Source: Nitrospirota bacterium (GTDB taxonomy: Bacteria; Nitrospirota; Thermodesulfovibrionia; Thermodesulfovibrionales; SM23-35). From it: 64,000 nucleotides of DNA. The notes below the pieces were generated by a model that was not told where the DNA came from, did no database searches, and saw only the letters and a list, made by a program, of their open reading frames with translations. Location: assembly GCA_013388455.1 (NCBI GenBank), contig JACAFF010000022.1, forward strand, positions 41,866 through 105,865. The letters are read 5' to 3'. Shown in pieces: positions 198 to 62,820 of the stretch; position 1 is the stretch's first letter; each line of letters opens with the position of its first letter. The position numbers and the translations under genes were made by a program.

Positions 198-824
198 ATG
201 TCTAATATTGATTTCAATTTATATCTCATCACTGACAGAAAATTATTTTCGACGCAGTGTTCATTATATTTAGCACTCGAAGATGCTCTTAAAGCCGGCG
301 TGAAAGCGATTCAATTAAGGGAAAAAGATTTAACAGTAAAGGAAGTCTTCGAAATGGCACTATGGCTGAGAAATCTGACAAGAGAATATGAAGCAAAACT
401 GTTTATCAATGACAGAGCAGATGTTGCCCTTGCTGTTAATGCTGATGGAATTCATCTCAGTCAAAACAGTATTCCTGTGGATGCAGTTAAAAAGATTACT
501 AAAAATAATCTCTTAATTGGAGTATCCACTCATAATATTGAAGAAGCTATTAATGCAGAAAAAGCAGGTGCTGATTTCATCACCTTCGGCCCAATTTATC
601 AAACTACTTCGAAACCGGAATATAAAAATACGACTGGAGTTGATATTATCCGTGATTTGAAAATGCACATTTCCATAAAGATATTAGCTATTGGCGGTAT
701 AAAACCTGATAAGGTCAAAGAAGTAATAGATGCAGGTGCTGATGGTATTGCATTAATCTCTGCAATCCTCGCATCTAAAAATATTCACGAAACAACTCAA
801 GAATTTATGAGGTTGCTGAAATGA
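198..824 (+). CDS. thiE: thiamine-phosphate synthase
   Basis: ORF-track protein (LYLITDR..., IQLREKD, GVSTH, FGPIY, AIGGI) is typical ThiE. ATG at 198 follows the leader terminator, whereas the TTG at 177 lies inside the terminator T-tract. Stop overlaps the thiC start (ATGA). Confidence 0.85.
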   Translation: MSNIDFNLYLITDRKLFSTQCSLYLALEDALKAGVKAIQLREKDLTVKEVFEMALWLRNLTREYEAKLFINDRADVALAVNADGIHLSQNSIPVDAVKKITKNNLLIGVSTHNIEEAINAEKAGADFITFGPIYQTTSKPEYKNTTGVDIIRDLKMHISIKILAIGGIKPDKVKEVIDAGADGIALISAILASKNIHETTQEFMRLLK

Positions 825-2116: not shown

Positions 2117-2877
2117 TGAAAACAGCACTCACCATAGCAGGCTCTGACCCGACAGGCGGTGCAGGCATTCAGGCAGACCTGAAAGTATTCAGAGCATTTG
2201 GCATACACGGTTTATCTGTTGTGGCTGCCATCACCGCTCAAAACACACAAGGTATTGAAGCCATCTTTTCTGCTGATAAAAATGCGATTAAAAAACAGTT
2301 TGTAACACTCCTGTCTGATATAAAACCAGATGCACTCAAGATAGGAATGGTTTACAGCGTTGATGCTGTTAAGATTATAGCTGATTTGATAAATAAATAT
2401 TCACTTAAAAACCTTGTAATCGATCCGGTAATTATCTCTTCATCCGGCACTTCACTTGTTGAGAATGGAACTATAGATGCAATTAAGAAAACCCTCTTCC
2501 CTCTGTCAAAGGTTATAACCCCTAACATATATGAGGCATCCGTTCTTACCGGAATAATGATTGAAGATAGGAAAGGGATGGAAGAAGCTGTGAGGGTTCT
2601 TAAAGATATGGGGGCTGATGTTATTATCATTACGGGTGGTCACTTTAAAGAGACAGCGGTTGACCTTTATTATGATGGAGCTTTCCACATTGTAGAAAGT
2701 AGAAAGCTGAAAGGTGAATACCACGGCACCGGATGTGCATTTTCTGCTGCAATAACTGCCCTCCTTGCCCTTGATTACACTTCACTTGAAGCAGCAAAAA
2801 AAGCAAAAGAGTTCGTTTGCAACGCAATAAAAAAGGCATACCATCTCGGCAAAGGGATGGAGATTCTTAATATATAA
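2116..2877 (+). CDS. thiD: hydroxymethylpyrimidine/phosphomethylpyrimidine kinase
   Basis: 253 aa, TIAGSDPTGGAGIQADLK N-terminus and GTGCAFSAAI motif typical of ThiD. Confidence 0.9.
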   Translation: MKTALTIAGSDPTGGAGIQADLKVFRAFGIHGLSVVAAITAQNTQGIEAIFSADKNAIKKQFVTLLSDIKPDALKIGMVYSVDAVKIIADLINKYSLKNLVIDPVIISSSGTSLVENGTIDAIKKTLFPLSKVITPNIYEASVLTGIMIEDRKGMEEAVRVLKDMGADVIIITGGHFKETAVDLYYDGAFHIVESRKLKGEYHGTGCAFSAAITALLALDYTSLEAAKKAKEFVCNAIKKAYHLGKGMEILNI

Positions 2878-8207: not shown

Positions 8208-10316
8208 ATGGTAACTCAAGAATCTGTAATCAATTTTTTCAAGGAGACAATAACAAAACCTCTCAGTTTTAGAGAGATTGCTTTTATTCTAAAACTCAGC
8301 AGATCAGAAATACGAGCCCTTAGAAGAATTTTGAATATTTTGGTCCGCGAAGGAGATATTGTTCGAACAAGAAAAGGGCTTTACGGTCTATCTGAGGGAA
8401 TGAACCTTGTAACTGGTTATTTTGAATCTCATAAAGATGGATATGGTTTTGTAATTCTTGAAAAACCGGGAGAGAGGGATATTTTTATCCCAGCCAGGTC
8501 AAAACTCGGGGCATTGAGTAACGACAGAGTGCTTGTTCGCATTGAAAACTGGAAAAAAAGAGAGGGTCAGATAATCAGAATACTCGAAAGGGCTTATACA
8601 AGAATTGCTGGAAAATTTGAGGTTACAAAAACAGGTTTTTATGTTAAACCCAAAGATAAATCTATTCATTTTGATATACATATACCCGACAAAGAAAAAG
8701 GGAATGCCAAAAATGGCGATATGGTAATTGCTGAAATAATCAATTATCCAACAGATAGAAAACCGCTCTCTGGCAGGATTGTGAAAATTCTGGAAAAACC
8801 TGAAAATCCAAAAGCAGATGTAGAGGCTATTATTGATGAGTTCAATCTACCAAGAAGATTTCCTAAAAATGTGCTTGAAGAAGCGGAACTCCTCATTAAA
8901 AATAATCGAAGATTTAAATATGGAGCAGAATTAAAAAGAAAAGACCTGAGACTGCTTCCCACTATGACTATTGATGGCGAACGCGCACGTGACTTTGACG
9001 ATGCTGTTTCTATCGAACTCACCATGCATGGATACAAACTTTACGTCCATATTGCTGACGTTAGTTTCTATGTAGTCTGGAATTCTGCATTAGATTTAGA
9101 AGCAAGGGAAAGAGGAACAAGCATATATTTTCCTGATAGGGTTTTACCAATGCTACCAAAAGAATTATCTGAAGATATTTGCAGTCTAAAACCGAAAGTA
9201 GAACGATTAACCTTCACAATTGAAATGGATTTTGACAGGAATGGGAACAGACTCGATTCAAAATTTTATCCAAGTATTATAGTCAGCAATGAACGAATGA
9301 CTTATACATCTGTCAGAAAAATACTTATTGATAACGATCCTGCTGAACGGAGGAAATACGATTATCTTCTTCACACTTTTGATTTGATGGCAGAACTCTG
9401 TGGCTTGCTCAGAAACAACAGGCTTCAAAGGGGAAGTCTTGATTTTGACCTGCCTGAACCAGAGGTTCTTCTCGATATACAGGGTATGCCAGAGGCTATC
9501 TTAAGAGCTGAACGAAACTTTGCACATATCATGATAGAAGAATTTATGATCGCTGCAAACGAGGCTGTATCAGAATATCTTAAAAGCCTTGAGATTCCAA
9601 TGATATACAGGATTCATGAAGAGCCAGATCCGCTAAAATTTAAGGATATCTTCAAGTTTATTAGATCAATATGGAAATCAAAGCATCCTCTAAAACCAAA
9701 AGATTTTCCTGATATACTTAGAGGGATAAAAGGAAAACCCGAGGAAGAAGTAATACATTATTTAATCTTAAGAAGTCTTAAACAGGCAAGGTATTCACAC
9801 ATTAACATTGGACATTTTGGTCTTGCATCAAAATGCTATACACACTTTACTTCACCAATAAGGCGTTATCCTGATCTTATTGTTCATCGAATTTTACGGG
9901 AGGTGTTAGATAAAAAACATCTTTCGAAAAAACGCATTCAGGATTTAAATAAACTTTTACCTGATATTTCTTTCCAGTCTTCCCGTATGGAACGCCTTGC
10001 AGATAAAGCAGAGAGAGAGGTTATAGAGGCAATGAGAGTATGGCTTATGAAGGATAAGGTTGGAGAAGAATTTGATGCAAAGGTTGTGAGTGTCACTCCC
10101 TATGGATTGAAAGTAAGATTAAAAAAATTTTTTGTTGAAGGATTCCTTCATGTATCATATATGAGTGATGATTTCTATCAATACAATGAGCAATCAATGA
10201 GTCTCGTAGGCAGACACACAAAGCATTCATTTTCTATCGGAAAAGAATTAAGGGTAAGGATTGACAGGGTAGACATGGATGAAAGGGAGATAATACTGGA
10301 TATCTGCTCTTCATAA
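8208..10316 (+). CDS. rnr: ribonuclease R
   Basis: 702 aa; RNB catalytic region (DGERARDFDDAVS, FTSPIRRYPD) and C-terminal S1 domain. Confidence 0.93.
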   Translation: MVTQESVINFFKETITKPLSFREIAFILKLSRSEIRALRRILNILVREGDIVRTRKGLYGLSEGMNLVTGYFESHKDGYGFVILEKPGERDIFIPARSKLGALSNDRVLVRIENWKKREGQIIRILERAYTRIAGKFEVTKTGFYVKPKDKSIHFDIHIPDKEKGNAKNGDMVIAEIINYPTDRKPLSGRIVKILEKPENPKADVEAIIDEFNLPRRFPKNVLEEAELLIKNNRRFKYGAELKRKDLRLLPTMTIDGERARDFDDAVSIELTMHGYKLYVHIADVSFYVVWNSALDLEARERGTSIYFPDRVLPMLPKELSEDICSLKPKVERLTFTIEMDFDRNGNRLDSKFYPSIIVSNERMTYTSVRKILIDNDPAERRKYDYLLHTFDLMAELCGLLRNNRLQRGSLDFDLPEPEVLLDIQGMPEAILRAERNFAHIMIEEFMIAANEAVSEYLKSLEIPMIYRIHEEPDPLKFKDIFKFIRSIWKSKHPLKPKDFPDILRGIKGKPEEEVIHYLILRSLKQARYSHINIGHFGLASKCYTHFTSPIRRYPDLIVHRILREVLDKKHLSKKRIQDLNKLLPDISFQSSRMERLADKAEREVIEAMRVWLMKDKVGEEFDAKVVSVTPYGLKVRLKKFFVEGFLHVSYMSDDFYQYNEQSMSLVGRHTKHSFSIGKELRVRIDRVDMDEREIILDICSS

Positions 10317-13224: not shown

Positions 13225-14547
13225 GTGTTGATAACGTTGAAAAAAAATATAATCTCTGTTGGAATTATCGGGTTTGGAACAGTAGGTAAAGGCACGGTCC
13301 GTATTCTCCTTGAGAACAGGGATATTCTAAGGGAAAGACTCGGTTTTGATATACAGGTTAAAAGAGTTGCTGTGCGTGATATAAAAAAAGACAGAGGCAT
13401 AAAACTACCAAAAGGTATGATCACAAAAAATGTGCATTCTGTGCTCAATGATCCAGAGATAGACATTGTTGCAGAACTTATAGGTGGGATATCACCGGCA
13501 AAGGACTTTATCCTTACAGCAATAAGAAATGGCAAACATATAGTGACTGCAAACAAAGCGCTTCTGGCAACAGAGGGCAATGAAATATTCAATGCTGCGC
13601 AAAAAGCCGGGATTGAGATCGGGTTTGAAGCATCAGTGGCTGGCGGTATTCCAATTATAAAAGTCATACGTGAAGGTCTTGTTGCAAATAGATTTAAGGC
13701 TATATACGGCATCATAAATGGAACTTCTAATTACATACTCACAAAAATGACAGATGAAAACGTCGAGTTTGAAGATGCACTCAAAGAGGCTCAGGAACTC
13801 GGTTATGCTGAAGCTGATCCAACATTGGACATAGAGGGAATCGATTCTGCACATAAACTTGCCATACTCGCATTTCTTGCTTATGGGTTACCCTTTCATT
13901 TTAAAGATATATATGCCGAGGGAATTTCCAGAATTACACAGGAGGATATAAAATTTGCTTCAGAACTTGGTTATAAAATAAAACTTCTCGCTATTGCAAA
14001 AGACAAGGATAACTTGATAGAACTAAGGGTTCATCCAACGATGATCCCCGAAAATTATCTCATATCAAAAGTGGATGGCTCTTTTAATGCAATATACATA
14101 GAAGGAGATGCCACAGGTTCTACTTTATATTATGGAAGAGGTGCAGGAGACCTCCCAACAGGAGGTGCAGTTGTAAGTGATATAGTTGGGATTGCAAAGG
14201 ATATAAGGAAAAATGTTACAGAAAGATTACCTTTATTAGCCAAGCCAAAAAGGAAAATAAGAATCAAAAAAATGGATGAAGTAACATCAATGTATTACTT
14301 CAGGTTTACTGCACTTGATAAACCCGGTGTGCTTTCAAAAATATCAGGAATTCTCGGAAACAATAATATCAGTATTGCTTCTGTTATACAGAAAGGCAGA
14401 AGAGTTGGTAAGGCCGTTCCACTCGTTGTACTAACTCACGAAGCAAAAGAGAAAAATGTCAGAAAGGCTCTAAAAGAAATAGACCGCCTGCCTGTTGTTA
14501 TGGGTAAAACAGTACTTATCAGGGTTGAGGACAAAGAAACAGGCTAA
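13225..14547 (+). CDS. hom: homoserine dehydrogenase
   Basis: 440 aa; GFGTVG NAD site, TANKALLA, GIINGTSNYIL, C-terminal ACT domain. Start uncertain: GTG at 13225 or TTG at 13237. Confidence 0.9.
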   Translation: MLITLKKNIISVGIIGFGTVGKGTVRILLENRDILRERLGFDIQVKRVAVRDIKKDRGIKLPKGMITKNVHSVLNDPEIDIVAELIGGISPAKDFILTAIRNGKHIVTANKALLATEGNEIFNAAQKAGIEIGFEASVAGGIPIIKVIREGLVANRFKAIYGIINGTSNYILTKMTDENVEFEDALKEAQELGYAEADPTLDIEGIDSAHKLAILAFLAYGLPFHFKDIYAEGISRITQEDIKFASELGYKIKLLAIAKDKDNLIELRVHPTMIPENYLISKVDGSFNAIYIEGDATGSTLYYGRGAGDLPTGGAVVSDIVGIAKDIRKNVTERLPLLAKPKRKIRIKKMDEVTSMYYFRFTALDKPGVLSKISGILGNNNISIASVIQKGRRVGKAVPLVVLTHEAKEKNVRKALKEIDRLPVVMGKTVLIRVEDKETG

Positions 14548-14560
14548 TAAAAAAGCGCTC

Positions 14561-15343
14561 ATGAAATTTAGTGAGGAACAGCACCTCCGTTACCTGCGAC
14601 ATATAATGCTCCCCGAAGTCGGGATAGAAGGGCAGATTAAGATTTCTAATGCAAAGGTCTTCGTAGTTGGTGCTGGGGGACTCGGCTCACCAGTTGGTTA
14701 TTACCTCTCAGCAGCAGGGGTTGGAACCATAGCATTCATTGATAATGACAACGTTGATTTAAGCAATCTCCAGCGACAGATAGCTCACAGCACAAAGACA
14801 CTCGGCAAACCAAAAGTTGATTCTGCAAAAAAGACATTCGAATCTCTCAATCCCGATGTCCATATCGTTGCAATCAGGGACAGATTAACAAAACTGAATG
14901 TCCTTGAGCACATAAAAAATTACGATATTGTAGTAGATTGCAGTGATAACTTTTCTACCCGTTTTCTTGTAAACGACGCTTGCGTTATGTCTAAGAAACC
15001 TCTGGTTACAGGAGCTATTTTCAAGTTCGAAGGCCAGTTGACGGTTGTAGTCCCGGGGGATGGTCCTTGCTACCGGTGTCTTTTCGAAGAACCACCTCCG
15101 CCCGGTGTCCTTCCCGCACCCTCAGAAGTCGGGCTTTTTGGAGCAATCCCGGGCGTTATCGGGACATTGCAGGCAGCAGAGGTCCTTAAACTAATCCTGC
15201 AAATTGGCACTTTACTCAAAGGTGAGCTTCTCATATATAATGCACTCAAACCTTCATTCAGGAAAGTAAAAATCCCGAAAAACCCTAATTGCCCTGTCTG
15301 CAGCGATAAACCAACAATAACTAAGTTGATTGAGTACAGCTAA
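14561..15343 (+). CDS. MoeB/ThiF/HesA-family E1-like adenylyltransferase (candidate sulfur-carrier activator)
   Basis: RYLRHIMLPEVG, GAGGLGSP nucleotide loop, NLQRQ, CYRC and CPVC zinc motifs. ATG at 14561 preferred over the ORF-track 14495, which overlaps hom. Confidence 0.85.
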   Translation: MKFSEEQHLRYLRHIMLPEVGIEGQIKISNAKVFVVGAGGLGSPVGYYLSAAGVGTIAFIDNDNVDLSNLQRQIAHSTKTLGKPKVDSAKKTFESLNPDVHIVAIRDRLTKLNVLEHIKNYDIVVDCSDNFSTRFLVNDACVMSKKPLVTGAIFKFEGQLTVVVPGDGPCYRCLFEEPPPPGVLPAPSEVGLFGAIPGVIGTLQAAEVLKLILQIGTLLKGELLIYNALKPSFRKVKIPKNPNCPVCSDKPTITKLIEYS

Positions 15344-15366
15344 CCCGAAAAATGCATATGTTGTGG
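15341..15366 (+). repeat. partial left end of MITE-like element (copy G)
   Basis: TAACCCGAAAAATGCATATGTTG matches the TTAACCCGAATAATGCAGACATTG ends of copies A, B and E; begins at the moeB-like stop codon. Confidence 0.5.
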
Positions 15367-15377
15367 AATGTGGAATG

Positions 15378-15554
15378 GGGTCGGACTTGTTTATTGCAAT
15401 TTGTCTTTTCATTTAGCATATTTAAAACATTTTCCATATCCGCTTTAAAGGTTTCTCCTTCTTTCAAATATCTGGTGATTACCGATGGGTCTTTTTGAAG
15501 ATAGAATGCTATTTCTTTACTCTTATACCCAAATTCCCTATCTGTAATAAATGC
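15378..15554 (-). pseudogene. C-terminal remnant of an HTH (DnaA-C-like) domain gene, possibly a Y1-transposase-associated family
   Basis: Minus-strand reading frame ...REFGYKSKEIAFYLQKDPSVITRYLKEGETFKADMENVLNMLNEKTNCNKQVRP, preceded by an in-frame stop. Architecture parallels the remnant at 21232-27. Confidence 0.4.
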
Positions 15555-15897
15555 CTAACAGTCCTGTATCTTCTGTTGTAATACATTGTGTAACTCTGGT
15601 TTATACCCTGAAGAATTTTTGGGGGCTGAAGTCGAAGCGTAAGCCTCAGAGATAAAATATGCAACTACACCAAAATATAAAAATAAAGCCATGTTTTTAT
15701 ACTAAGGTAGTTTATTTTGTTTTATAAATTGAGTTATTGCCAGATATGCTATTTTCATAAAATTATTGAGTTGACCCGCCTGAGGAGGGTAAATCCGCCT
15801 CAGGCAAATCAGTTAAATAAATTTTTAAGCAATGCCTAAATTATCTGGGTGAACCTTCTCAGCATTAAACAAATATTTATTCTGATATTTCAAATAG

Positions 15898-21231: not shown

Positions 21232-21427
21232 CACCTTGACGAAAGACAAAGTGACCTTACGTAATTCCTTTTACTCAAAGATACAGATTGGAGAATATTT
21301 TAGTAATTTAAGTTATTCTGCAGTAGTAAAGATATATGAGCGGTTTAAAAGAAGATTGAAAGAAAACACAAGATTAAGAAGAGAGGTAGAGAAAATAGAG
21401 AGACAATTGTCCTATGTCAAAGTGTGA
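21232..21427 (+). pseudogene. C-terminal remnant of an HTH (DnaA-C-like) domain gene, same family as 15378-15554
   Basis: ...KIQIGEYFSNLSYSAVVKIYERFKRRLKENTRLRREVEKIERQLSYVKV*. The N-terminal part of the ORF-track ORF is read-through of the MTase 3' end. Terminal AAGTGTGACCCC resembles the inverted AAGTCCGACCCC at 15378-89. Confidence 0.45.
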
Positions 21428-21842
21428 CCCCTCTCATTTTTCCGCTAAATTAATTATCCCTGGCCATTTTTTAACAGAAATTATCTTACACTGCCAGGAA
21501 CAATCTCCGTATGAGGCATGTGGTATTCTTGCAGGGAAAAACAATGTCGTAGAAAAAGTCTTCAAGATGACTAATGTCGAAAAATCTTCTGTAAGTTATC
21601 TGATGGATTCAAGGGAACAATTTATTGCCATGAAAGAAATGAGCGGGCTTGGACTCGCTATGGTCGCAATATATCACTCTCATCCTGTTTCCTCTGCATA
21701 TCCTTCGCCCAAAGACATAAGCCTCGCATTTTACCCTGACACATTTCATGTCATCGTAAGTCTTGCTTCCGGTGCTGCCGTAATCAAAGCCTTTGAGATA
21801 AAAGATGGCGTCAGAGAAATAGAAATCATAGAGACTCATTAA
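21414..21842 (+). CDS. JAMM/MPN+ metalloprotease (Mec+/HcyD-like)
   Basis: EACG...(E), HSHPVSSAYPSPKD = JAMM motif H-x-H-x7-S-x2-D; 142 aa, the size of CysO/HcyS-processing enzymes. Confidence 0.85.
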   Translation: MSKCDPSHFSAKLIIPGHFLTEIILHCQEQSPYEACGILAGKNNVVEKVFKMTNVEKSSVSYLMDSREQFIAMKEMSGLGLAMVAIYHSHPVSSAYPSPKDISLAFYPDTFHVIVSLASGAAVIKAFEIKDGVREIEIIETH

Positions 21843-22020
21843 CCCGAATAATGCAGACATTGCTCGAAAATTTCTTTAACTCGATGAATTTATTAAATTA
21901 TTCAGATTCGTTCGATGAATAAAAATATTCGTAAAACCATTAGTTAAAGGTACACTAAGGTATCAAAAAATAAATTTTCTCGCAACATCTGCATTATTCA
22001 ATTGCATTATTTGGGTTAAT
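21839..22020 (+). mobile_element. MITE-like inverted-repeat element, copy A (longest)
   Basis: TTAACCCGAATAATGCAGACATTGCTCGAAAATTTCTTTAA ... AAATTTTCTCGCAACATCTGCATTATTCAATTGCATTATTTGGGTTAA; ~30-bp imperfect TIRs and no coding capacity. Confidence 0.7.
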
Positions 22021-23999: not shown

Positions 24000-25091
24000 A
24001 TGGAATTAGGAGAAAGTAATAGTAGTAGTATTTCATGGAGAGGTATTATTGAAGAGTATCGTGAATTTCTTCCAGTTACAGATAATACACCAATTGTAAG
24101 CCTCAGAGAAGGAAATACTCCTCTTATTAAAAGTCAGAACATCAAGAAAAAACTCGACCTCGATATTGAACTGTATTTCAAATTTGATGGTGCAAATCCT
24201 ACAGGGTCTTTTAAGGACAGGGGCATGACTCTCGCAATTTCTAAAGCTATGGAGAATAAAGTCAGCGCTGTAATATGCGCCTCGACAGGAAATACTTCGG
24301 CTTCTGCTGCCGCATATGCTGCAAGGGCAAATATCAGAGCTATCGTCCTGATACCAGAAGGTAAAATTGCGCTCGGAAAACTTGTGCAGGCAATCGTTCA
24401 CGGTGCTCACGTCCTTCAGGTCGATGGAAATTTTGATGTGGCCTTAAATATAGTCAAGTCACTTGTGGAAAAACATCCTATAACACTGGTAAATTCCATT
24501 AATCCATTCAGAATTGAAGGTCAGAAATCTGCTGCATTTGAGGTATGTGATCAACTTGGTTTTGTTCCAGAATATCATTCCCTGCCAGTTGGTAATGCAG
24601 GGAATATCACAGCATACTGGAAAGGTTATAATGAATATTATAAAGCTAAAAGAATTTCGTCGCTTCCAGTTATGCTTGGTTTCCAGGCAGCAGGAGCTGC
24701 ACCTATTGTCCTCGGCAAGCCGGTTGAAAAACCCGAAACTGTTGCAACAGCAATAAGAATTGGTAATCCTGCAAGCTGGCAAGGTGCTGTAGCAGCACGG
24801 GATGAATCGGGAGGAAGAATTGACTCAGTAACTGACGATGAAATATTGAATGCATATAAATTAATTGCTTATGCAGAGGGAATTTTCTGTGAGCCTGCAT
24901 CAGCAGCCTCTCTTGCAGGTGTGATAAAATTACACAAAGAAAATTACTTCAAACCCGGCGCTATTGTTGTATGCACATTAACAGGAAATGGCCTTAAGGA
25001 CCCTGATACAGTATTTAAGGTAGCCAGGGAACCAATTAAGGTCAAAGCTGATTTAGGCACTGTAGAAAAAGCAATAGAAGGTATCATATGA
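24000..25091 (+). CDS. thrC: threonine synthase
   Basis: 363 aa; EGNTPL, NPTGSFKDRGM (PLP lysine), ASTGNTSASAAAYA, short-type ThrC. Confidence 0.9.
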   Translation: MELGESNSSSISWRGIIEEYREFLPVTDNTPIVSLREGNTPLIKSQNIKKKLDLDIELYFKFDGANPTGSFKDRGMTLAISKAMENKVSAVICASTGNTSASAAAYAARANIRAIVLIPEGKIALGKLVQAIVHGAHVLQVDGNFDVALNIVKSLVEKHPITLVNSINPFRIEGQKSAAFEVCDQLGFVPEYHSLPVGNAGNITAYWKGYNEYYKAKRISSLPVMLGFQAAGAAPIVLGKPVEKPETVATAIRIGNPASWQGAVAARDESGGRIDSVTDDEILNAYKLIAYAEGIFCEPASAASLAGVIKLHKENYFKPGAIVVCTLTGNGLKDPDTVFKVAREPIKVKADLGTVEKAIEGII

Positions 25092-26296
25092 AATACATAA
25101 TTATTATTGGTGATGGGATGGCTGACAGACCGCTTAAAGAACTTAAGGGTAAAACCCCTCTGCAAAAAGCAAGGACTCCTAATATGGACAAACTTGCAAG
25201 GGAAGGTTTCATTGGCAGGATAAAAACTATACCTCATGGATTTCATCCGGGCTCTGATGTTGCTAATCTTAATATCCTCGGATATAATCCTGAAGAATTC
25301 TATTCAGGCAGAGCACCTTTAGAAGCACTTAGTATGGGTGTTAAACTTAAAGAAAATGATGTAGCATACAGATGTAATTTAGTTACACTTAAGTACAATA
25401 AAGATAAAACAAAAGCTGTAATGGAAGATTATAGCAGCGGCCATATTCCCACAGCAGAAGCAAAAGAACTTATCCAAGAAATCAATGAAAAATTAGGCTC
25501 TGAAAAGATCAGCTTTTATGCCGGTGTCAGCTACCGACATATTATGGTATGGTCTTCAGGCGCAGTGAATATTGAATGTACCCCTCCACATGACATTACT
25601 GGTAAAAATATTGCAGATTATCTTCCAGTTGGAGACCACGAAGAGTTCTTAAGAGAAATAATGTTAAAGGCGAGTGCCATACTTGGAGGACATCCTATTA
25701 ACAGAAACCGTATAAGAAAAGGTGAAAAGCCTGCCAATGGTATATGGCTATGGGGACAGGGCAAAAGAAAAATCCTTCCAACTTTCATTGAAAAATATGG
25801 ATTGAATGGCTCTCTCGTATCTGCTGTCGACCTTATCAAAGGTATTGGTATAAGTGCAGGATTTGAGATTCTCAATGTACCAGAAATTACCGGATATCTG
25901 GATACAAATTATTCAGGTAAGGCAGAGTCATCAATCAAAGCACTTCAAAAGGTTGACATTGCTTACATTCATGTAGAAGCACCTGATGAGGCAGGACATT
26001 CTGGCAATATTAAGGATAAGATTAAAGCAATAGAGGATTTTGACAAATTCGTTGTAGGTAATGTATTGAGGGGATTAAAATCTTTTACTGAATACAAAAT
26101 ATTGCTTTTGCCTGATCACGCTACCCCAATAGCAGTTAAAACCCATACTGACGAACCAGTGCCCTTTGTTATTTTTGATAGTCGGGTTAAAAGAACGAAT
26201 AAGAATGTGTCTTTCGATGAATCTATATCTCAAAGAGACGGGATTCTCGTTTTTGAGGAAGGTTACAGGTTAATGGATTATTTTATAAAAGGTTAA
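25088..26296 (+). CDS. ApgM-type cofactor-independent phosphoglycerate-mutase-family protein, probable non-orthologous homoserine kinase
   Basis: 402 aa alkaline-phosphatase-superfamily protein (IIIGDGMADRP, HVEAPDEAGH, LLPDHATP); overlaps the thrC stop by 4 nt (ATGA). Confidence 0.75.
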   Translation: MKYIIIIGDGMADRPLKELKGKTPLQKARTPNMDKLAREGFIGRIKTIPHGFHPGSDVANLNILGYNPEEFYSGRAPLEALSMGVKLKENDVAYRCNLVTLKYNKDKTKAVMEDYSSGHIPTAEAKELIQEINEKLGSEKISFYAGVSYRHIMVWSSGAVNIECTPPHDITGKNIADYLPVGDHEEFLREIMLKASAILGGHPINRNRIRKGEKPANGIWLWGQGKRKILPTFIEKYGLNGSLVSAVDLIKGIGISAGFEILNVPEITGYLDTNYSGKAESSIKALQKVDIAYIHVEAPDEAGHSGNIKDKIKAIEDFDKFVVGNVLRGLKSFTEYKILLLPDHATPIAVKTHTDEPVPFVIFDSRVKRTNKNVSFDESISQRDGILVFEEGYRLMDYFIKG

Positions 26297-26407
26297 CCCG
26301 AATAATGCAGACATTGCTCGAAAATTTCTTTAAAAGGTACACTAAGGTATCGAAAAATAAATTTTCTCTCAACATCTGCATTATTCAATTGCATTTTCTG
26401 GATTAAT
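26293..26407 (+). mobile_element. MITE-like element, copy B
   Basis: TTAACCCGAATAATGCAGACATTGCTCGAAAATTTCTTTAA...CTCAACATCTGCATTATTCAATTGCATTTTCTGGATTAA; near-identical to copy A ends, and the stop codon of the upstream gene lies in its first 4 nt. Confidence 0.7.
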
Positions 26408-33878: not shown

Positions 33879-34041
33879 TTATGTCTCCTTTAAGGAAATT
33901 TATATAATTACTTTAATTTTTATTATAATATTTTACAATTAATGCTATTTTTTTATTTTATGATAATTGATAATTATGGAATGGCCTGTGCTGAGGATAT
34001 CTAATCCTCAGAGGTCATGATGATAAACTAAATGAAATTCT

Positions 34042-34120
34042 AATAATGCAGATGTGTGAAAAAATTTATTTTTCGATACCTTAGTTTACCTATAAATAAT
34101 GGTTTTATGAATACTTTTAC
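34042..34120 (-). mobile_element. MITE-like element, copy C (partial, inverted orientation)
   Basis: AATAATGCAGATGTGTGAAAAAATTTATTTTTCGATACCTTAGT...GGTTTTATGAATA is the reverse complement of the right half of copies A and B; the left half is replaced. Confidence 0.55.
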
Positions 34121-53622: not shown

Positions 53623-56049
53623 TTAAATTTTATCCCTATTCTCCTTTGTTGATTCATCTTCTTTTTCCTTTTTCTTTTCCATCGACTCTGATATTTCTGT
53701 AAGACGTTTTACAATAAGATAGTTAACCGTTCCTTCCGGATATGTGCCGTCTTCTCTAAGTTCTCCGCACTTCAAGCCAGTCATTATCTCAAGTCCTTCA
53801 TCAACTTTCTCTATGGGATAAATGGAAAATTTACCACTTCTGACTGCTTCAACCACATCGTTTTTCAGCATCAGATTTTTTACATTTCTTTTCGGTATAA
53901 TCACACCGTGACTGTCGTCAAGTCCTTTTAATCTGCAGAGAGCAAAAAACCCCTCTATCTTTTCATTTATGCCACCAACAGGTTGAACCTCTCCGTTTTG
54001 ATCCATAGAACCGGTAACAGCAATATTCTGCTTCAGCGGGACTCCAGCTATACTGCTCAACAGAGCATAAAGTTCAGCACAGGATGCGCTATCACCCTCA
54101 ACCATCTCATATAATTGTTCAAAGGTAATTGATGCTGAGAGACTGATTGGTTTTTTTATTGCATATCTACTACCGAGATAGTTTGAGATGATAAGGATTG
54201 CTTTTTCATGGATCTTGCCACTCATCTTAGTCTCCCTCTCAATGTTCACTACACCTGCCTTTCCTGCATAGCACCTCGCTGTTATCCGGGATGGTTTACC
54301 AAAACTGTAATCACCAAAATCAAGCACTGCAAGCCCATTAATCTGCCCTATCTTTTCTCCCTCTGTTTCAACAATAATGGTCCCGTCCAGAATCATTTCC
54401 CTCAAACGATCCTCAATCTTACTATTCCTGAATATCCTTTCATTAATCGCCTGCTGAACATGTTTTTCGGTCACAACTGTGCTACCCGATTTCGATGCCC
54501 AATAACTTGCCTCTCGCAGGATATCAGTTATATCACTAAAACGGGTAGATAATTTGTTCTGATTCTCGGCAAGCCTGGAGCCTGTTTCAACTATTTTTGC
54601 AACCCCTGTTGAATCAAATGGAAGAAGCTTTTCTTCTCTACAGATCGTAGCAATAAAAGAAGCATATTTCTGAATATTCTCATCAGTCCTGTTCATTCTG
54701 CTATCAAAATCTGCCTTTACTTTGAAAAGTTCCCTGTATTCTTCATCAAGGTTGTAAAGGAGATAATATAGATAAGGATTTCCGACAAGTATAACCTTTA
54801 TATCAAGTGGAATAGATTCAGGCTTTAGTGTTGTTGTAGATATTAACCTATATTGTTCCCACACATCTTCTATTTTCAGTTCTTTGTTTCTGATAGCACG
54901 TTTTAATGCATCATATGCAAATATATTCCTTAAAAGGTCAAGAGCATCTATAACGATGTAGCCACCGTTTGCTTTATGGAGTGAACCTGCTTTGATCATT
55001 GAAAAATCTGTTAACGCAATACCGTACTGTATCTTATGTTCTATTCTTCCAAAAAGATTGTAATATGTTGGATTGCTCTCAAATATGCAAGGTGCCCCTT
55101 TGCAATCCTTATTGTTTACAAGAACATTTACGGTATATCGTGTAAAAGTTGGCTCTGCCTTAGGTAGTTTCATGAATGGTAACTGCGGAGTCTGTTCTTC
55201 TTGAAATTTAAAGTCATCAAGGTGTTCCAGAATATCTTCTTTAACATCCTCAAGATATGAAGTAATCCTTTCATATTCTTTAAACTCATTTTTGATTTCA
55301 TCTATCAGATGCCCAACAGCAGAAAGAGCTGCCTCTTTTTCAAGTTTTGCAACAGCTTCTTTCACCAACTTTTCGGTTTCTCTTATGACACGCACAACAT
55401 CATTGAGCTTTTCCTGCAATGTCTTTCCTGTTTCGTCCAACCTTTTTCTTGTTTTTTCATCAAGTAATTCATATTCCTCTTCAGTAAGAGGTTCTCCTGT
55501 CTTCCTGACAGGAACAATTATCAATCCACTTACTGTCTTTCTGAGGGAAAATCCCTTTTCTTGAGCTTCCTGCTCAAGGCTGCTGAATACCTCACGTTGT
55601 TTTTGTTGCGATGCCTCTATAATCTTATTTTTCTGTTTCTCATATTCTGTTGATTCAAAAACCTTTGGTATTTCTGTTCTTAAAATCTTTATCATTTCAT
55701 CCATACTTTTTTGAAATATAATGGCATCACCTGGCTTCATAGAGATAGCTACAGGTGAATCAGGGTCTTTAAAATTGTATAAATAACACCAGTCATGAGG
55801 CACAGGCTCACTCAGGGCTTTTTGTGCAAGAAATGACTTTACAGTAGTCATTTTGCCTGTGCCATGTTCACCCAGAATGAAAATATTAAATCCACTACTA
55901 TCCAGACTAAGCCCAAAATCAATAGCATGAAGCGCCCTTTCCTGCCCTATTGTATATTTCATGTCAGGAAGTTCATCTGTTGTTTTAAATTTAAAGATTT
56001 CAGGATCACAGAATTTATAAAGCTGATCGAATTTTAATTTTTCAACCAT
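53623..56049 (-). CDS. Lon-like AAA+ protease (LonB/LonC-type, no N-terminal Lon domain)
   Basis: Walker A GEHGTGKMT, long coiled-coil insertion, C-terminal Lon protease domain with TGSMDQNG (Ser) and INEKIEGF (Lys). Confidence 0.8.
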   Translation of the reverse strand: MVEKLKFDQLYKFCDPEIFKFKTTDELPDMKYTIGQERALHAIDFGLSLDSSGFNIFILGEHGTGKMTTVKSFLAQKALSEPVPHDWCYLYNFKDPDSPVAISMKPGDAIIFQKSMDEMIKILRTEIPKVFESTEYEKQKNKIIEASQQKQREVFSSLEQEAQEKGFSLRKTVSGLIIVPVRKTGEPLTEEEYELLDEKTRKRLDETGKTLQEKLNDVVRVIRETEKLVKEAVAKLEKEAALSAVGHLIDEIKNEFKEYERITSYLEDVKEDILEHLDDFKFQEEQTPQLPFMKLPKAEPTFTRYTVNVLVNNKDCKGAPCIFESNPTYYNLFGRIEHKIQYGIALTDFSMIKAGSLHKANGGYIVIDALDLLRNIFAYDALKRAIRNKELKIEDVWEQYRLISTTTLKPESIPLDIKVILVGNPYLYYLLYNLDEEYRELFKVKADFDSRMNRTDENIQKYASFIATICREEKLLPFDSTGVAKIVETGSRLAENQNKLSTRFSDITDILREASYWASKSGSTVVTEKHVQQAINERIFRNSKIEDRLREMILDGTIIVETEGEKIGQINGLAVLDFGDYSFGKPSRITARCYAGKAGVVNIERETKMSGKIHEKAILIISNYLGSRYAIKKPISLSASITFEQLYEMVEGDSASCAELYALLSSIAGVPLKQNIAVTGSMDQNGEVQPVGGINEKIEGFFALCRLKGLDDSHGVIIPKRNVKNLMLKNDVVEAVRSGKFSIYPIEKVDEGLEIMTGLKCGELREDGTYPEGTVNYLIVKRLTEISESMEKKKEKEDESTKENRDKI

Positions 56050-56367
56050 TAATTTCCTCCATGCATAATTTATTCAACCTTATTATTTCTTATAATTTAA
56101 ACAGTTTACATGGTTTTTCTAATCGTTTCAACTAATCATATAATCATCCACTTAATCTGAACTGGTCAAGGATGGGGGGAATGCTTGAAAAGTGCATGCG
56201 ATCCTTTCAAAAATGGTATTAACATTGAGTTTTCTTATATCTTCGGCAAGAAGGCGATAATGTATCTAAGAGACTTAAATCTGCGGGCATGTTATAAGCA
56301 GGTAAAGATGGATACATAAGGTTGGTTGAGGTTCTGAATGGGTTGATTGATGAAGTAACATAAACTA

Positions 56368-56410
56368 TTAACCCGAATAATGCAATTGAATAATGCATTT
56401 TTCGGATTAA
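56368..56410. repeat. 43-bp palindromic unit equal to the joined outer ends of the MITE-like element (copy F, 'empty' form)
   Basis: TTAACCCGAATAATGCAATTGAATAATGCATTTTTCGGATTAA. Its reverse complement equals copy A with the TGCAGACATTG...CAACATC interior removed. Confidence 0.6.
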
Positions 56411-56541
56411 GTATCTCTTGATGATGTTAGCTTGAGATTCTTGAAACAAGGTTAGGGTAACATTATGGATATGATATGACTACAACCAATTAACAATGTG
56501 TATATAATTCCATAAAATACACATGAAAGGAGGTGATCAGA

Positions 56542-56699
56542 ATGAGTAATGCATTGAAAATGAGGAAACAGTTTATTCTTGATTCAAAAAAATTAAATCT
56601 GTCAGAGAAATTACAAGGGCAAAAACAGACACAGAAGCTGTAGACAAGGCATTAGATCTTGTGATATCAAACAGCAAAATAGAGAAAATGCTTATGTAA
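56542..56699 (+). pseudogene. vapB: VapB-type antitoxin, frameshifted in an A7 run
   Basis: GGAGGTG RBS then MSNALKMRKQFILDSKK|; the +1 frame continues KSVREITRAKTDTEAVDKALDLVISNSKIEKMLM*, typical of short antitoxins upstream of PIN toxins. Confidence 0.55.
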
Positions 56700-56730
56700 A
56701 TCAAGGGCAAGGGCTGTATAAAAGACGTTT

Positions 56731-57165
56731 ATGGTAGATTACCTCACTAAAGTTATCATTGATACCTCGATATACATTCCCTTTATTAATTCAGGAATTG
56801 CACATCCTGTACTTAATCTTGAATATAAACCATTGTTTTATATGAGTGCAGTAGTTGTTGAGGAGCTTTATGCAGGCGCCTTTGATAACAAGTCTATTAA
56901 ATGTTTAGACAGGATGTATGAAACTTTTGAAGATATTGGTCGCATAGTTGTTCCAGAGGCATCTGACTGGCAAAAAACAGGAAAGGTTATTACCAAGCTC
57001 GGCCAGAAATATGTCTTTGAAGAAAAATTTTTATTAAAAATAACTAATGATGTTTTGATTGCCCTTTCAGCAAGGCGAATCGGAGCAGTTGTAGTCACAT
57101 CTAATGTAAAAAATTTTTTAAGGATAAAAGAGTTTATAGATTTCAAGATGTATGGCGAAATTTGA
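56731..57165 (+). CDS. vapC: PIN-domain toxin (VapC family)
   Basis: Acidic quartet context IIDTS, VVEELY, TNDVLIA, TSNVKNF; 144 aa. Confidence 0.75.
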   Translation: MVDYLTKVIIDTSIYIPFINSGIAHPVLNLEYKPLFYMSAVVVEELYAGAFDNKSIKCLDRMYETFEDIGRIVVPEASDWQKTGKVITKLGQKYVFEEKFLLKITNDVLIALSARRIGAVVVTSNVKNFLRIKEFIDFKMYGEI

Positions 57166-57173
57166 AAGATAAT

Positions 57174-57284
57174 ATGGGAAAAGTATATAAAGACAAAAAA
57201 TCAAAAGGATGTGCTTTATGCAAGCCGCATAAGCATGGATGGACTCCAAAGAAGAAGATAAAGATCATTTTCATTGAAAAGTAG
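57174..57284 (+). CDS. 36-aa basic CxxC mini-protein MGKVYKDKKSKGCALCKPHKHGWTPKKKIKIIFIEK (not in ORF track)
   Basis: ATG 9 nt after the vapC stop; a GC.LCKPHK motif is what I recall from small conserved hypothetical proteins; weak RBS. Confidence 0.3.
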   Translation: MGKVYKDKKSKGCALCKPHKHGWTPKKKIKIIFIEK

Positions 57285-57509
57285 ATGGACAGGGAGATAA
57301 ATAAAGTAATCGGTAGTTCATCTAAGGAATAATTGTCTCTTGCATGAACAGAATAGTTTTTGAATGAATAACACAAACTTACATAAAAATCATTCTGCCC
57401 TTCAAGCCCACAACTGCCTTAACTCCTTAATAAATTTATACAATTTTATATGTAGTATAATAGATTGAATGTTTTTTAGTTATTTTATATAAATATAGCA
57501 ATTATTTTA

Positions 57510-57538
57510 TTGACATTTATAAATAATAATTATATATT
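57510..57538 (+). promoter_or_regulatory. sigma70-type promoter TTGACA-17-TATATT
   Basis: Same hexamers and spacing as the thi promoter; 30 nt upstream of the ATG at 57569, in an extremely AT-rich tract. Confidence 0.45.
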
Positions 57539-57568
57539 TTGAACATAATTTTAATATTTGGAACATTT

Positions 57569-57787
57569 ATGAAACAGGAAAGCAGGCATGAACGGTTTAA
57601 AAGAATAGCATCTAAACGTACTAACGAGATTCTTGAGAAGATAAGAATACTCGGAAATTGTTCGAATAAGAGTTCTTATGAATATACAGAAGCAGAGGTC
57701 AACAAAATTTTTAACGGGATTGATAAACAATTAAAACTGACAAAGGCAAAGTTTCTGGCATGGAAAAAGGAGAGGTTCAGGCTATGA
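57569..57787 (+). CDS. hypothetical small basic helical protein (72 aa)
   Basis: MKQESRHERFKRIASKRTNEILEKIRILGN...; first gene after the promoter. Confidence 0.45.
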   Translation: MKQESRHERFKRIASKRTNEILEKIRILGNCSNKSSYEYTEAEVNKIFNGIDKQLKLTKAKFLAWKKERFRL

Positions 57788-58046
57788 AGAAAAAGGGGTA
57801 ATAACTTTGAGTTACAAGAGAAAAGATAAATCAAAACAGCAAATATTAATGGTAAAAGAAAGTTTGTATAGCACTCCAAAGACAATTTATAAATATAAAG
57901 AAAAATTTGGAAAGAAGTAGATATTTCAAGATACCAGGCACAAAAATTGATTTATAACATAAAGCAATTAACGAATTACAGAAAAAAAACTTGCACAGAA
58001 TCCAAGAGATAATATTTAGTTGGAAGTTTTAAAAGAAGGAGGAGTG

Positions 58047-58310
58047 ATGGAACCTTACTTTGTAGAAATTAAAGATTATGAAACACGAGAAAGTGTAATT
58101 GTTGATATGGAAGGACCTTTTCATCCAGAGGATGAAAGAATCGGTGAACATATATATGGAGCTATACTTTTGATCGATGGTATTCCTTATCATTTTGAAA
58201 AATACATTCCTACAAAAGAAGAACTTATAACCTTTCAAGAAGAAAATGAGGGAGAATCACGGTTATCAGAGGGCAAATTTCTCTATAGACTTGTACCATT
58301 TACAAAATAA
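58047..58310 (+). CDS. hypothetical protein (87 aa, acidic)
   Basis: GAAGGAGGAG RBS before the ATG at 58047; no recognisable domain. Confidence 0.5.
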   Translation: MEPYFVEIKDYETRESVIVDMEGPFHPEDERIGEHIYGAILLIDGIPYHFEKYIPTKEELITFQEENEGESRLSEGKFLYRLVPFTK

Positions 58311-58433
58311 ACTGGTTATCGCTACACGAGATAAATGATTATCAATTTCTACAAGTATTTTTTTGACTGCTATGACTTCCATGAAATAAATGGACATATC
58401 CAAAGACAAGTAGGAAATACAAATAAGGAGGTT

Positions 58434-58742
58434 ATGGGGATGGAAGCATCGTTTTTATTGAAAAGAGTAGGCATAAATCCTGATGAACCTGTACTTTTGA
58501 TTACTGCAGGAGAAGCGTTGGAAAATCTTTTAGAAGCAGTTAATGAATATTATCCTGACTTAAAAATAGACAAAATGAAGAAAGAAGACATTATAGCTTT
58601 ACTTGATAGTTATAAAGATTGCGTTGTTCTTTATCATCCTGAAGCTTATCATCAAGAACGAGGTGCGTTATTAAAAAACTTTGAAATGTTAAAACGCTAT
58701 GGATTAACTGATGATGATTATGATTCTTTAGATTTCTATTGA
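58434..58742 (+). CDS. hypothetical protein (102 aa)
   Basis: AAGGAGG RBS before ATG 58434; no recognisable domain. Confidence 0.5.
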   Translation: MGMEASFLLKRVGINPDEPVLLITAGEALENLLEAVNEYYPDLKIDKMKKEDIIALLDSYKDCVVLYHPEAYHQERGALLKNFEMLKRYGLTDDDYDSLDFY

Positions 58743-58859
58743 AAGATGAGGAAAATAATTGTTCAAATCTCTCCATCACAAGACGGAATGACAAAGTATA
58801 GATTGGCATATAGCTCTCTTACTTGCATAGTAAATGTTTGCAATTAAAAGACAAAAAGC

Positions 58860-59349
58860 ATGATAACGGAAATTAAAAACATCCTCAATAGAATTGACTC
58901 AATCAAATTTGACCTTGACGGTTACCGTCCTTTTTCAGAACATGTTGTAAAACAACTGAAAGACTATTACCGCATTGGGCTGACATACACATCCAATGCA
59001 ATCGAGGGCAATACGCTTACAGAGTCGGAAACAAAGGTTATGCATAACAATAGGTGGGAAATCCCTGAGAGAACATTATGAGGCAATAGGACACGCAAAG
59101 GCTTATGACCATATTTACACTCTGATGGGCAGGCCGATATCAGAGGAAGATATTTTGTTTCTCCATAAGCTCTTTTTTCAGCAGATAGATTTTGAGAATG
59201 CAGGCAGATACAGACAGAAAAATGTCATCACCACAGGAACCGATTATCTGCCTCCTGATTATCAGGAAGTTCCTGAACTGATGAAAAAGTATATTGCGAA
59301 TTTAAATACGTATGTTGAAAATAAACACATCCTTGCTAAAAAAGAATAA
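58860..59349 (+). pseudogene. Fic/DOC-family protein, frameshifted and 3'-truncated before the HxFx(D/E)GNGR motif
   Basis: TYTSNAIEGNTLTESETKV then frameshift to ITIGGKSLREHYEAIGHAKAY...; the ORF ends in a TAA that is part of MITE copy D, and no Fic active-site motif is present. Confidence 0.7.
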
Positions 59350-59424
59350 TGCAGACATTGCTCAATAATTTCTTTAACTCGATAGGTATCGAAAAATAAA
59401 TTTTCTCACAACATCTGCATTATT
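59345..59424 (+). mobile_element. MITE-like element, copy D (inner core only, 80 bp)
   Basis: AATAATGCAGACATTGCTCAATAATTTCTTTAACTCGATAGGTATCGAAAAATAAATTTTCTCACAACATCTGCATTATT. Confidence 0.7.
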
Positions 59425-59513
59425 CATCCGTTTAAATACTATGTCCTGTCTATATCTTAAAAATTCATGAATGATATTGGTTAAATAAGACTTTATGGAC
59501 AAGGTAATCTTTT

Positions 59514-60395
59514 TTATGCCCTTGGGTGATGCTTTGAATAAACCTGCTTGAGCCTCTCAGCAGTGACTTTTGTATATATCTGTGTTGTCGATATGTCAGA
59601 ATGGCCAAGCATCTTTTGTAATGACCTTAGATCTGCTCCACCTTCAAGTAAATGTGTTGCAAAAGTGTGCCGCATAACATGAGGAGAAATTTGAATCCCG
59701 AGATTTCTGCCTAACTCCTTAATCGCCTGCCAGAAACGTTGTCTTGTCATCGGTCTGCCTCTATTAGTAATAAAAAGAAAAGGCGATTTCTTCTTTTTAA
59801 GGATTTTCAATCTCTGATGCACTAAATATTGTTTAATAGCTTCAACAGCCCTTAAGTTTACCGGCACAATCCTCTCTTTTGAGCCCTTTCCCATAACACG
59901 TAAAAATCCAGCCTCCAGATTAACATCTTCAAGTTTCAGAGATATGATCTCACTGACTCGCAAACCTGAAGAGTACATAAGTTCAAACATCACATGGTTT
60001 CTTACTGAAATGGCGTCAGATGCTTGTGACAAACTTGATTCAAGAAAAGCTCTTATATCAACAATGCTGAGTGACTTTGGAAGCCTTTCCCATCGCTTTG
60101 GTGATTTTAGGCTTTCTGAGGGGTCATCCTTTCTTAAGTCTTCAATAATAAGATATTTACATAAACCTTTTATTGACGACATTAATCTGCATATGCTTGA
60201 CAGTGAATAACCTTTATCTCTTAATGTTTCAATAAAGTCAATGATATCAGTTCTTGAGAAACTAATAAAATCCTTTTCTTTTGAAGTGAGAAAATTCTGG
60301 AATTTCTTTAAATCAAATTCATATGATTCAACAGAATTCATGGATAATCCTTTTTCTGCTGAAGCATATGATAGATAATTTTCAAGTATTTCCAT
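59514..60395 (-). CDS. tyrosine recombinase XerC/XerD family
   Basis: 293 aa; SAM-like N-terminal domain, R...HxxR...Y catalytic set (MRHTFATHLL, GHSDISTTQIYT). Confidence 0.88.
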   Translation of the reverse strand: MEILENYLSYASAEKGLSMNSVESYEFDLKKFQNFLTSKEKDFISFSRTDIIDFIETLRDKGYSLSSICRLMSSIKGLCKYLIIEDLRKDDPSESLKSPKRWERLPKSLSIVDIRAFLESSLSQASDAISVRNHVMFELMYSSGLRVSEIISLKLEDVNLEAGFLRVMGKGSKERIVPVNLRAVEAIKQYLVHQRLKILKKKKSPFLFITNRGRPMTRQRFWQAIKELGRNLGIQISPHVMRHTFATHLLEGGADLRSLQKMLGHSDISTTQIYTKVTAERLKQVYSKHHPRA

Positions 60396-60403
60396 GCTAA
60401 GAT

Positions 60404-62592: not shown

Positions 62593-62704
62593 ATGAGCAC
62601 ATCTCCAAAATAACTAAAACTTTTATACCATAAGAATCTACAAATTATCAATTTTTATGCCATATTAGCACAAGCTATAACTCTAATTAAAAAAAGTTTA
62701 TCTA

Positions 62705-62820
62705 AAGCCGAAAAATGCAGACATTGCTCAAAAATTTCTTTAATTCGATAGGCCCCTTCGTCCCACTTGGCAAGGGAGGAATTAACATCTGCATTATTTT
62801 AAATGCATTTTTAGGTTAAC
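62705..62820 (+). mobile_element. MITE-like element, copy E (variant interior)
   Basis: AAGCCGAAAAATGCAGACATTGCTCAAAAATTTCTTTAA...TTAACATCTGCATTATTTTAAATGCATTTTTAGGTTAA. Confidence 0.65.

Follow-up and report, generated by a model that had tools for sequence, protein, structure and literature searches.

Whether an apparently empty copy of a mobile element implies a second element nested inside the first is the question raised by a 43-bp palindrome at positions 56368-56410 of the window, the 64,000-nucleotide stretch of Nitrospirota DNA analyzed here. The palindrome, which reads TTAACCCGAATAATGCAATTGAATAATGCATTTTTCGGATTAA and is referred to below as F, had been described in an earlier note as the joined outer ends of a MITE found elsewhere in the window, the absent interior being bounded by a direct TGCA repeat. 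That description is borne out. The reverse complement of 56368-56410 is as the note gave it, and when the outer ends of the full-length copy A are joined (21839-21855 plus 21994-22019, giving TTAACCCGAATAATGCATTATTCAATTGCATTATTTGGGTTAA), they match the reverse complement of F at 40 of 43 positions and differ at 3, the spacer ATTGAATAATGCA included. What F lacks relative to A is 138 bp, namely a 134-bp interior and one TGCA.

Sequence of the palindrome and its match to the element ends

F lies on the minus strand, reversed in orientation relative to copy A, and reads on the plus strand as TTAA/CCCGAATAATGCA/ATTGAATAA-TGCA/TTTTTCGG ATTAA, in which ATTGAATAA-TGCA is a family-specific spacer. Its two arms, TTAACCCGAATAATGCA and TGCATTTTTCGGATTAA, are inverted copies of 17 nt each with 2 mismatches, and they are separated by a 9-nt loop. 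In terms of the element, F is composed of the left outer 17-mer, then the right-arm spacer and then the right outer 17-mer. The 13-nt spacer ATTGAATAATGCA, which marks one end of the element, is identical in copies A and B. That F merely resembles these ends by chance is extremely improbable: the AT-richness of the region is all that favors it, and shuffle controls refute it. At up to 3 mismatches, the outer 17-mer occurs 8 times in the window versus 0.32 expected, while the 22-mer TGCATTATTCAATTGCATTATT, which spans the center of F, is found 3 times (in A, B and F) versus 0.01 expected. The refuting alternative named in the earlier note, a coincidence of low-complexity sequence, can be set aside on the same counts. 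The DNA fold predicted for F is also a hairpin, with a free energy of -9.4 kcal/mol (z = -4.1), and an independent Logan contig (L121, run SRR10095362) contains the same 43-mer with the same flanks. No function is indicated for F at its site, as a search of 56000-56600 yielded no terminator-like site and promoter-like matches only at background level.

Copies in the window and architecture of the full element

Copy A (21839-22019, plus strand, 181 bp) is full-length, with a left end of TTAACCCGAATAATGCA/GACATTGCTCGAAAATTTCTTTAA and a right end of ...CAACATC/TGCATTATTCAAT/TGCATTATTTGGGTTAA, and its predicted DNA hairpin has a free energy of -27.8 kcal/mol (z = -5.1). Copy B (26293-26406, plus strand, 114 bp) carries a 67-bp internal deletion relative to A, with its junction at a repeated TTAA (CTTTAA/AGGTAC), and is situated between the stop codon of a phosphoglycerate-mutase-family ORF (25088-26296; Pfam PhosphMutase and Metalloenzyme) and the start, at 26414, of an endonuclease-III-like gene with an HhH-GPD domain. 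Copy C (62703-62819, plus strand, 117 bp) has degenerate ends, TAAAGCCGAAAAATGCA ... TGCATTTTTAGGTTAA, and in place of its center (62745-62790) it has a GC-rich stretch, GGCCCCTTCGTCCCACTTGGCAAGGGAGG. Contig L132 has a similar hairpin, likewise GC-rich, at about 9769-9800 (CCCCCCTTGCTAAGGGGGG), at the site where contig L201 has a full copy, and these stretches may be another small repeat. The short copy D (about 59336-59435, core 59344-59425, plus strand) has decayed outer ends, CTAAAAAA-GAATAATGCA ... TGCATTATTC-ATCCGTTTAA, and borders on a truncated ORF with a Fic domain (58996-59349), which stops at the TAA directly before the left TGCA. Copy E (15340-15853, plus strand; CTAACCCGAAAAATGCA/TATGTTGTGG ... 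TTAAATAAATTTTTAAGCAATGCC/TAAATTATCTGGGTGAA) is divergent and has foreign DNA inside, including the decayed remains of a Y1-transposase-like gene (15375-15700) that has a DnaA_C-like helix-turn-helix domain. Finally, a half copy at 34036-34120 (plus strand) consists of the right-end inner core, AATAATGC/AGATGTGTGAAAAAATTTATTTTTCGATACCTTAG, with no recognizable outer 17-mer.

The surroundings of F and D (window 56500-60400) are island-like, with a vapBC-type toxin-antitoxin pair (PIN protein at 56731-57165), the Fic gene that copy D truncates, and, on the minus strand, a XerC/D-like integrase (59514-60395). Rfam detects a single family in the window, a TPP riboswitch (RF00059, 69.4 bits) at 46-155, upstream of an ORF starting at 177, and contig L112 has a full-length copy of the element (551-733) directly upstream of a region matching window 209-2877.

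The full element measures about 181 bp and has a duplicated TTAA target at its boundaries. Its ends form a single long composite TIR of about 39 nt, in which the outer 17-mer TTAA-CCCGAAWAATGCA continues inward as GAYRTTGC..GAAAATTT (the inner 22-nt arm) and which runs through the TGCA uninterrupted. As a pair, the outer ends read TTAA-CCCGAAWAATGCA ... TGCATTWTTCGGG-TTAA. The arms are distinguished by an additional spacer of 13-14 nt in the right one (wTTnAnATAATGCA), a tandem repeat of GAATAATGCA. Read inward, the right end is TTAACCCAAATAATGCA/ATTGAATAATGCA/GATGTTGCGAGAAAATTTATTT and the left end TTAACCCGAATAATGCA/GACATTGCTCGAAAATTTCTTTAA. At TIR position 11, full copies have T in 96 of 103 left ends, whereas 33 of 50 right ends have A. 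Copies A and B are both predicted to fold with the left GAATAATGCA paired to the inner TGCATTATTC, so that the two TGCAs bounding the deletion in F would face each other in the stem.

TGCA occupies TIR positions 14-17, where it is nearly invariant, and it is its own reverse complement. Being both self-complementary and inside the TIR, it necessarily stands on both sides of any interior. The direct TGCA repeat that the earlier note had offered as a sign of target duplication is for this reason uninformative. The same symmetry forces TTAA, at TIR positions 1-4, to occur on both sides. More generally, a self-complementary flanking repeat inside an inverted repeat, whether TGCA or TTAA, should not be taken as a target duplication.

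The element is small and non-coding (the 181 bp of copy A leave room for at most about 60 codons), it has TIRs, it shows a target duplication in a filled/empty pair and its copies are dispersed. It thus has the defining features of a MITE, with the exception of a known parent insertion sequence. The GACATTG family to which the window copies belong is common in Nitrospirota/Thermodesulfovibrionia assemblies.

Target site and recent movement

Comparison of occupied with unoccupied sites gave one clean pair. In contig L242 the filled site reads ...ctcggataaa, TTAA, the element itself from CCCGAATAATGCA to TGCATTATTCGGG, a second TTAA and then ctaaaatttacaggagg (the right boundary can also be written as CGGG/TTAActaaaattta), while the empty site in L162 reads ...CTCGGATACA TTAA CTAAAATTTAAGGAGG (also ...GGATACATTAACTAAAATTTA). 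In this one pair, a single TTAA has become two, located at the outer ends of the element. The duplication is either TTAA or the central TA within a TTAA target, and both fit equally. Of the flanking duplications that the earlier note had proposed to look for, that of TTAA is therefore seen, in one filled/empty pair and with the central TA as an equal reading, whereas that of TGCA is not. One-sided support comes from the neighborhood of F, where the adjoining gene is lon-like and three Logan contigs (L125-L127) encode relatives of it at 98% protein identity. L127 begins inside a right end (...TGCATTTTTCGGGTTAA/GTGGATGATTAG), and the same spot in the window is a plain, unoccupied TTAA at 56152-56155 (AGATTAA/GTGGATGATTA). 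A further candidate pair, L035 against window 14533-14561, was rejected because the divergence is too great for a duplication to be read.

The same contigs bear upon mobility. L126 starts partway through a left end situated some 155 bp upstream of lon, at a place that is free of copies in the window. Since copies occupy different sites in strains whose lon proteins are 98% identical, the family has moved since these strains diverged. Upstream of lon, the three strains differ from the window and from each other, starting 100-155 bp from the gene. All three contigs end 125-181 bp upstream of lon, before the position of F is reached, and the vapC (PIN) gene adjoining F yielded no relative above 83% identity. 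No allele with a full copy at the site of F was found by either route.

Some element ends supply the upstream gene with its stop codon, in the TAA of a terminal TTAA, as at 21840-21842 (Prok-JAB-domain ORF 21414-21842), 26294-26296 (the phosphoglycerate-mutase-family ORF beside copy B) and 15341-15343 (ThiF-family ORF 14495-15343), and likewise at about 749-752 of L035. Across all fetched loci, 23 of 267 element ends (8.6%) terminate an ORF of 80 codons or more in this way, compared with 2.2% of all TTAA sites.

Surveys for inner cores and ends-only units

Two surveys extended the analysis beyond the window. An outer-end scan with the query TTAAYCCRAAWAATGCA, one genome per species, returned at least 120 loci. 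For a collection of this size we estimate that several hundred chance matches are expected, so many of its single matches are noise. The inner-core scan used GAYATTGYTCRAAAATTTMTTTAA alone on metagenome contigs, a design that removes selection by the outer end, and it yielded at least 120 loci covering 700 kb. No plasmid match to copy A was found.

The inner-core sample is what discriminates between one element and two, as symmetry extending past the TGCA is expected under both models and the distribution data alone decide. They favor a single element. The outer 17-mer, at up to 4 mismatches, directly abuts (offset 0) 101 of 121 distinct inner left ends. In the remaining 20 it is shifted or degenerate, or only (A)ATAATGCA is kept, and both arms are decayed. 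None of the 121 inner ends places the inner element cleanly at an unrelated TGCA. Among right ends with a recognizable outer 17-mer, 68 of 74 have the 13-14-nt spacer, which ends in TGCA in 65 of the 74 and varies in sequence between genomes; the exact spacer of F occurs 5 times in this sample. Paired copies are 175-190 bp long in 31 of 44 cases.

The earlier note had asked whether further empty units exist, and they do. Five clear 30-bp palindromes joined at TGCA were identified (in L004, L060 and L091, and two in L079), with L090 as a degenerate candidate, and L080 contains a 47-bp ends-only unit, GTAACCTGAATAATGCAGACATTATTCATTTGCATTATCGGGGTTAA, which keeps GACA and has its junction at CATT (GACATT/ATTC). 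Together with F, these are the ends-only units among about 240 bacterial loci, and the 700 kb of metagenome contigs, in which full copies abound, contained none except a single degenerate candidate, L247. Such units are thus rare, which makes the sample for junction diversity small. Four of the 30-bp units, mutually different, lie at four sites of one assembly, CAZXCW01. In 4 of the 5 bare 30-bp palindromes, one arm has A and the other T at TIR position 11. These arms mirror the right- and left-end types of full copies, and the palindromes accordingly look like derivatives rather than ancestors. Among the fetched contigs, no two were found to be allelic with the element full-length in one and shortened in the other; an apparent 30-bp gap in L132 was considered as a short allele and rejected, as it is the unrelated GC-rich hairpin mentioned above.

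Some decayed copies show matching changes in both arms (L245 at about 11227, minus strand; L174 at about 4057, minus strand; L060 at 2014-2043), namely GGCA...TGCC, AAAACA...TGTTTT, and outer ends TAAA...TTTA in place of TTAA...TTAA, with the hairpin preserved. This hints at arm-to-arm correction or at selection for pairing.

Origin of the palindrome

Aligned with one another, the copies form a series of decreasing length, from A (181 bp) through B (114 bp), D (about 90 bp) and the unit in L080 (47 bp) to F (43 bp), the alignment being made from the window copies together with L080 and L017. All deletions in the series are centered on the middle of the element, and the junctions fall at TTAA in B, at CATT in L080 and at TGCA in F. 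We consider it probable that F is an ends-only derivative of a TTAA-duplicating MITE, formed by internal deletion between two copies of TGCA. It belongs to the lineage of the full copies, since it contains the right-arm spacer typical of them. Judging from the junctions and the predicted folds, a microhomology-mediated internal deletion would have joined the TGCA of the left arm to the inner TGCA of the right arm to yield F. Folding back of the hairpin would set the two TGCAs opposite one another, which could allow replication slippage across the hairpin, and opposed repeats in a hairpin stem are the classic geometry for this process. An interrupted gap repair after excision may provide an alternative route to the same product. 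Both replication slippage and interrupted repair after excision are established routes to internally deleted transposons. The shortening could have occurred either at 56368-56410 itself or before F arrived there.

The place of deletion is the sole point on which one rival explanation departs from this one. According to it, F is a mobile mini-element, a 35-bp ends-only unit that was deleted elsewhere, transposed to its present site and duplicated TTAA there. F does have TTAA at both ends, it retains both outer 17-mers, the portion conserved across families, and CAZXCW01 has its four 30-bp units at four sites. We nevertheless regard this scenario as unlikely, because no second 43-bp copy was encountered among the fetched bacterial loci and the inner-core sample, and the mutual differences among the four CAZXCW01 units are unlike a recent copying burst. 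Less likely still is site-specific excision, in which a transposase acting on internal sites, a recombinase or a hairpin nuclease cuts between the TGCAs and leaves F as a footprint. The exact joining at TGCA of F and the five clear 30-bp units would suit such an enzyme, as would the long hairpin that juxtaposes the two TGCAs, but the 47-bp unit of L080 is joined at CATT with GACA kept, the junctions of B and D differ as well, and this diversity of junctions among short derivatives argues against a site-specific cut at TGCA. Moreover, no candidate enzyme came to light, the 20 window ORFs scanned include no transposase, and the Y1 remnant within copy E is part of another repeat, which has inverted repeats of its own. 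The earlier note had allowed for F being an excision or recombination footprint. Recombination comes close to the deletion that we favor, while the variable junctions argue against excision specific to TGCA.

The other possibility raised in that note, and the one that motivated the present question, is that a palindromic unit of 30-43 bp came first and that its central TGCA later received a distinct inner element, GACATTG...CAACATC, with duplication of the TGCA, F having stayed unfilled. Bare TGCA-joined palindromes in other genomes (those in L004, L060, L079 and L091) are what such a history might leave behind, and it would also account for the observation that at least 10 families with unrelated interiors share the outer 17-mer and diverge directly after the TGCA. 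We find it very improbable all the same. The inner core was not found alone: the outer 17-mer stands directly beside 101 of 121 cores, and the remainder, though decayed, mostly keep ATAATGCA. Copy D, which had been cited as an inner core without outer ends, in fact still has GAATAA ahead of the left TGCA and TTATTC following the right one, such that similarity extends 6 nt beyond the proposed TGCA boundary on each side. In addition, F has the right-arm spacer of full copies, bare units are rare where full copies are abundant and the TGCA repeat is forced by symmetry. Deletion within one element remains the preferred reading, and the nested or excisable inner element that the empty site seemed to imply is mostly explained away. 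On this reading, F is a product of ordinary transposon decay and does not imply a second element nested inside the first.

Search for a parent element

Presumptive parents were sought as pairs of the 17-mer 0.45-4 kb apart, as TTAAC...GTTAA inverted-repeat pairs enclosing a long ORF and as ORFs recurring across loci. No insertion sequence with these ends and a transposase was found among the approximately 360 fetched loci sampled, the viral loci among them having been checked for TIR pairs only. A Pfam scan of 20 window ORFs detected no transposase, a scan of viral contigs for an autonomous parent was negative and no piggyBac- or IS1380-like transposase stood beside these ends in the sampled loci. 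The chemistry by which the element transposes is thus something we infer here.

A Y1 (IS200-like) transposase was considered as the mover, owing to the remnant within copy E, and was rejected. Relatives of this remnant (L122-L124, for example at L122 3001-3204 and L124 119-655) lack the 17-mer and have an inverted repeat of their own, GGGGTCAGACTTGTTT. In L124 the remnant is flanked by GGGGTCAGACTTGTTT, one arm of which recurs in the window at about 15375-15392. The closest database matches of the remnant are all short fragments (62-121 aa), and no Y1-transposase motif occurs in the first 121 fetched loci (L001-L121). We therefore treat the remnant as a putative separate element inserted in or beside copy E.

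A shared end across phyla

The 17-bp end TTAACCCGAAWAATGCA closes at least 10 short inverted-repeat families with unrelated interiors, among which similarity stops directly after the TGCA (L001-L120). Assemblies with these families are labeled Nitrospirota, Deltaproteobacteria (Desulfobacterota-like), Cloacimonadota, Omnitrophota and Nitrospinae/Nitrospinota, and examples can be found at L008 5566-5792, L046 5675-5899, L035 538-752, L063 4570-4635, L064 894-1028 and L075 5043-5235. In a deltaproteobacterial family (L037 at about 4558, L075 5043-5075, L099 at about 1034), a partial complement of the 17-mer comes directly after it (AAAAATGCA-GT-TGCATTTTTT). One element end of this family thus already contains a nearly complete palindromic unit.

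It is conceivable that TTAA-CCCGAAWAATGCA defines an undescribed, cross-phylum superfamily of small TTAA-targeting bacterial transposons with a piggyBac/IS1380-like mover, in which ends-only units of 30-43 bp such as F either suffice for transposition or arise by a specific cut at TGCA, although we hold this to be a speculative and rather unlikely proposition. If it were true, F would rank among the smallest mobile DNA units known. Irrespective of this, palindromes of 30-45 bp in these genomes, perfect or nearly so, can be decay products of transposons and are not necessarily regulatory sites or targets of a second element. The broader family may matter more than F, as it is abundant, varies between strains (those with 98% identical lon proteins) and often gives the upstream gene its stop codon. 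A 17-bp end that crosses phyla, with no transposase found beside it, is also a lead toward a TTAA-targeting bacterial transposase.

Relation to known systems

A search of the accessible literature returned no description of the element end sequence or of bacterial TTAA MITEs, and the family is probably unnamed, yet of a well-known kind. IS1380 is a prokaryotic family that has been used as an outgroup of the piggyBac-type transposons and MITEs of eukaryotes (PMC10813416). The present element resembles piggyBac in having TTAA at both ends, a single TTAA at the empty site and CCC...GGG ends. The piggyBac element proper likewise starts with CCC and ends with GGG. This resemblance is a lead toward a possible enzyme, and a TA duplication within a TTAA preference, in the style of IS630/Tc1, fits equally well. 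REP/REPIN-RAYT and IS200/IS605 systems similarly include short palindromic intergenic repeats, and copy E contains a Y1-transposase remnant, but the element described here has long TIRs and a target duplication instead of subterminal hairpins. It does not fit the IS200/IS605 or REP/RAYT type, which has subterminal hairpins, no TIRs, no target duplication and a linked Y1 gene.

Deletion between short direct repeats is stimulated by palindromes, as formulated in the slipped-mispairing model from plasmid studies in E. coli. The deletions here similarly end in short repeats (TGCA, CATT, TTAA) brought together by a hairpin stem, and the product is a shorter palindrome, although in the present case the process would be read from the sequences at the junctions and from the predicted folds. 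Among bacterial MITEs with internally deleted size classes are the Correia elements of Neisseria, whose short class is about 105 bp and which duplicate TA. Unlike these, the present element has ends of TTAA-CCCGAAWAATGCA, without sequence similarity to Correia, its duplication is TTAA (or the central TA) rather than TA, and F measures 43 bp rather than about 105 bp. The two also have features in common: both are short, non-coding and multi-copy, both have long TIRs and duplicate an AT target, and both reside in intergenic positions beside genes and exist in internally deleted short forms.
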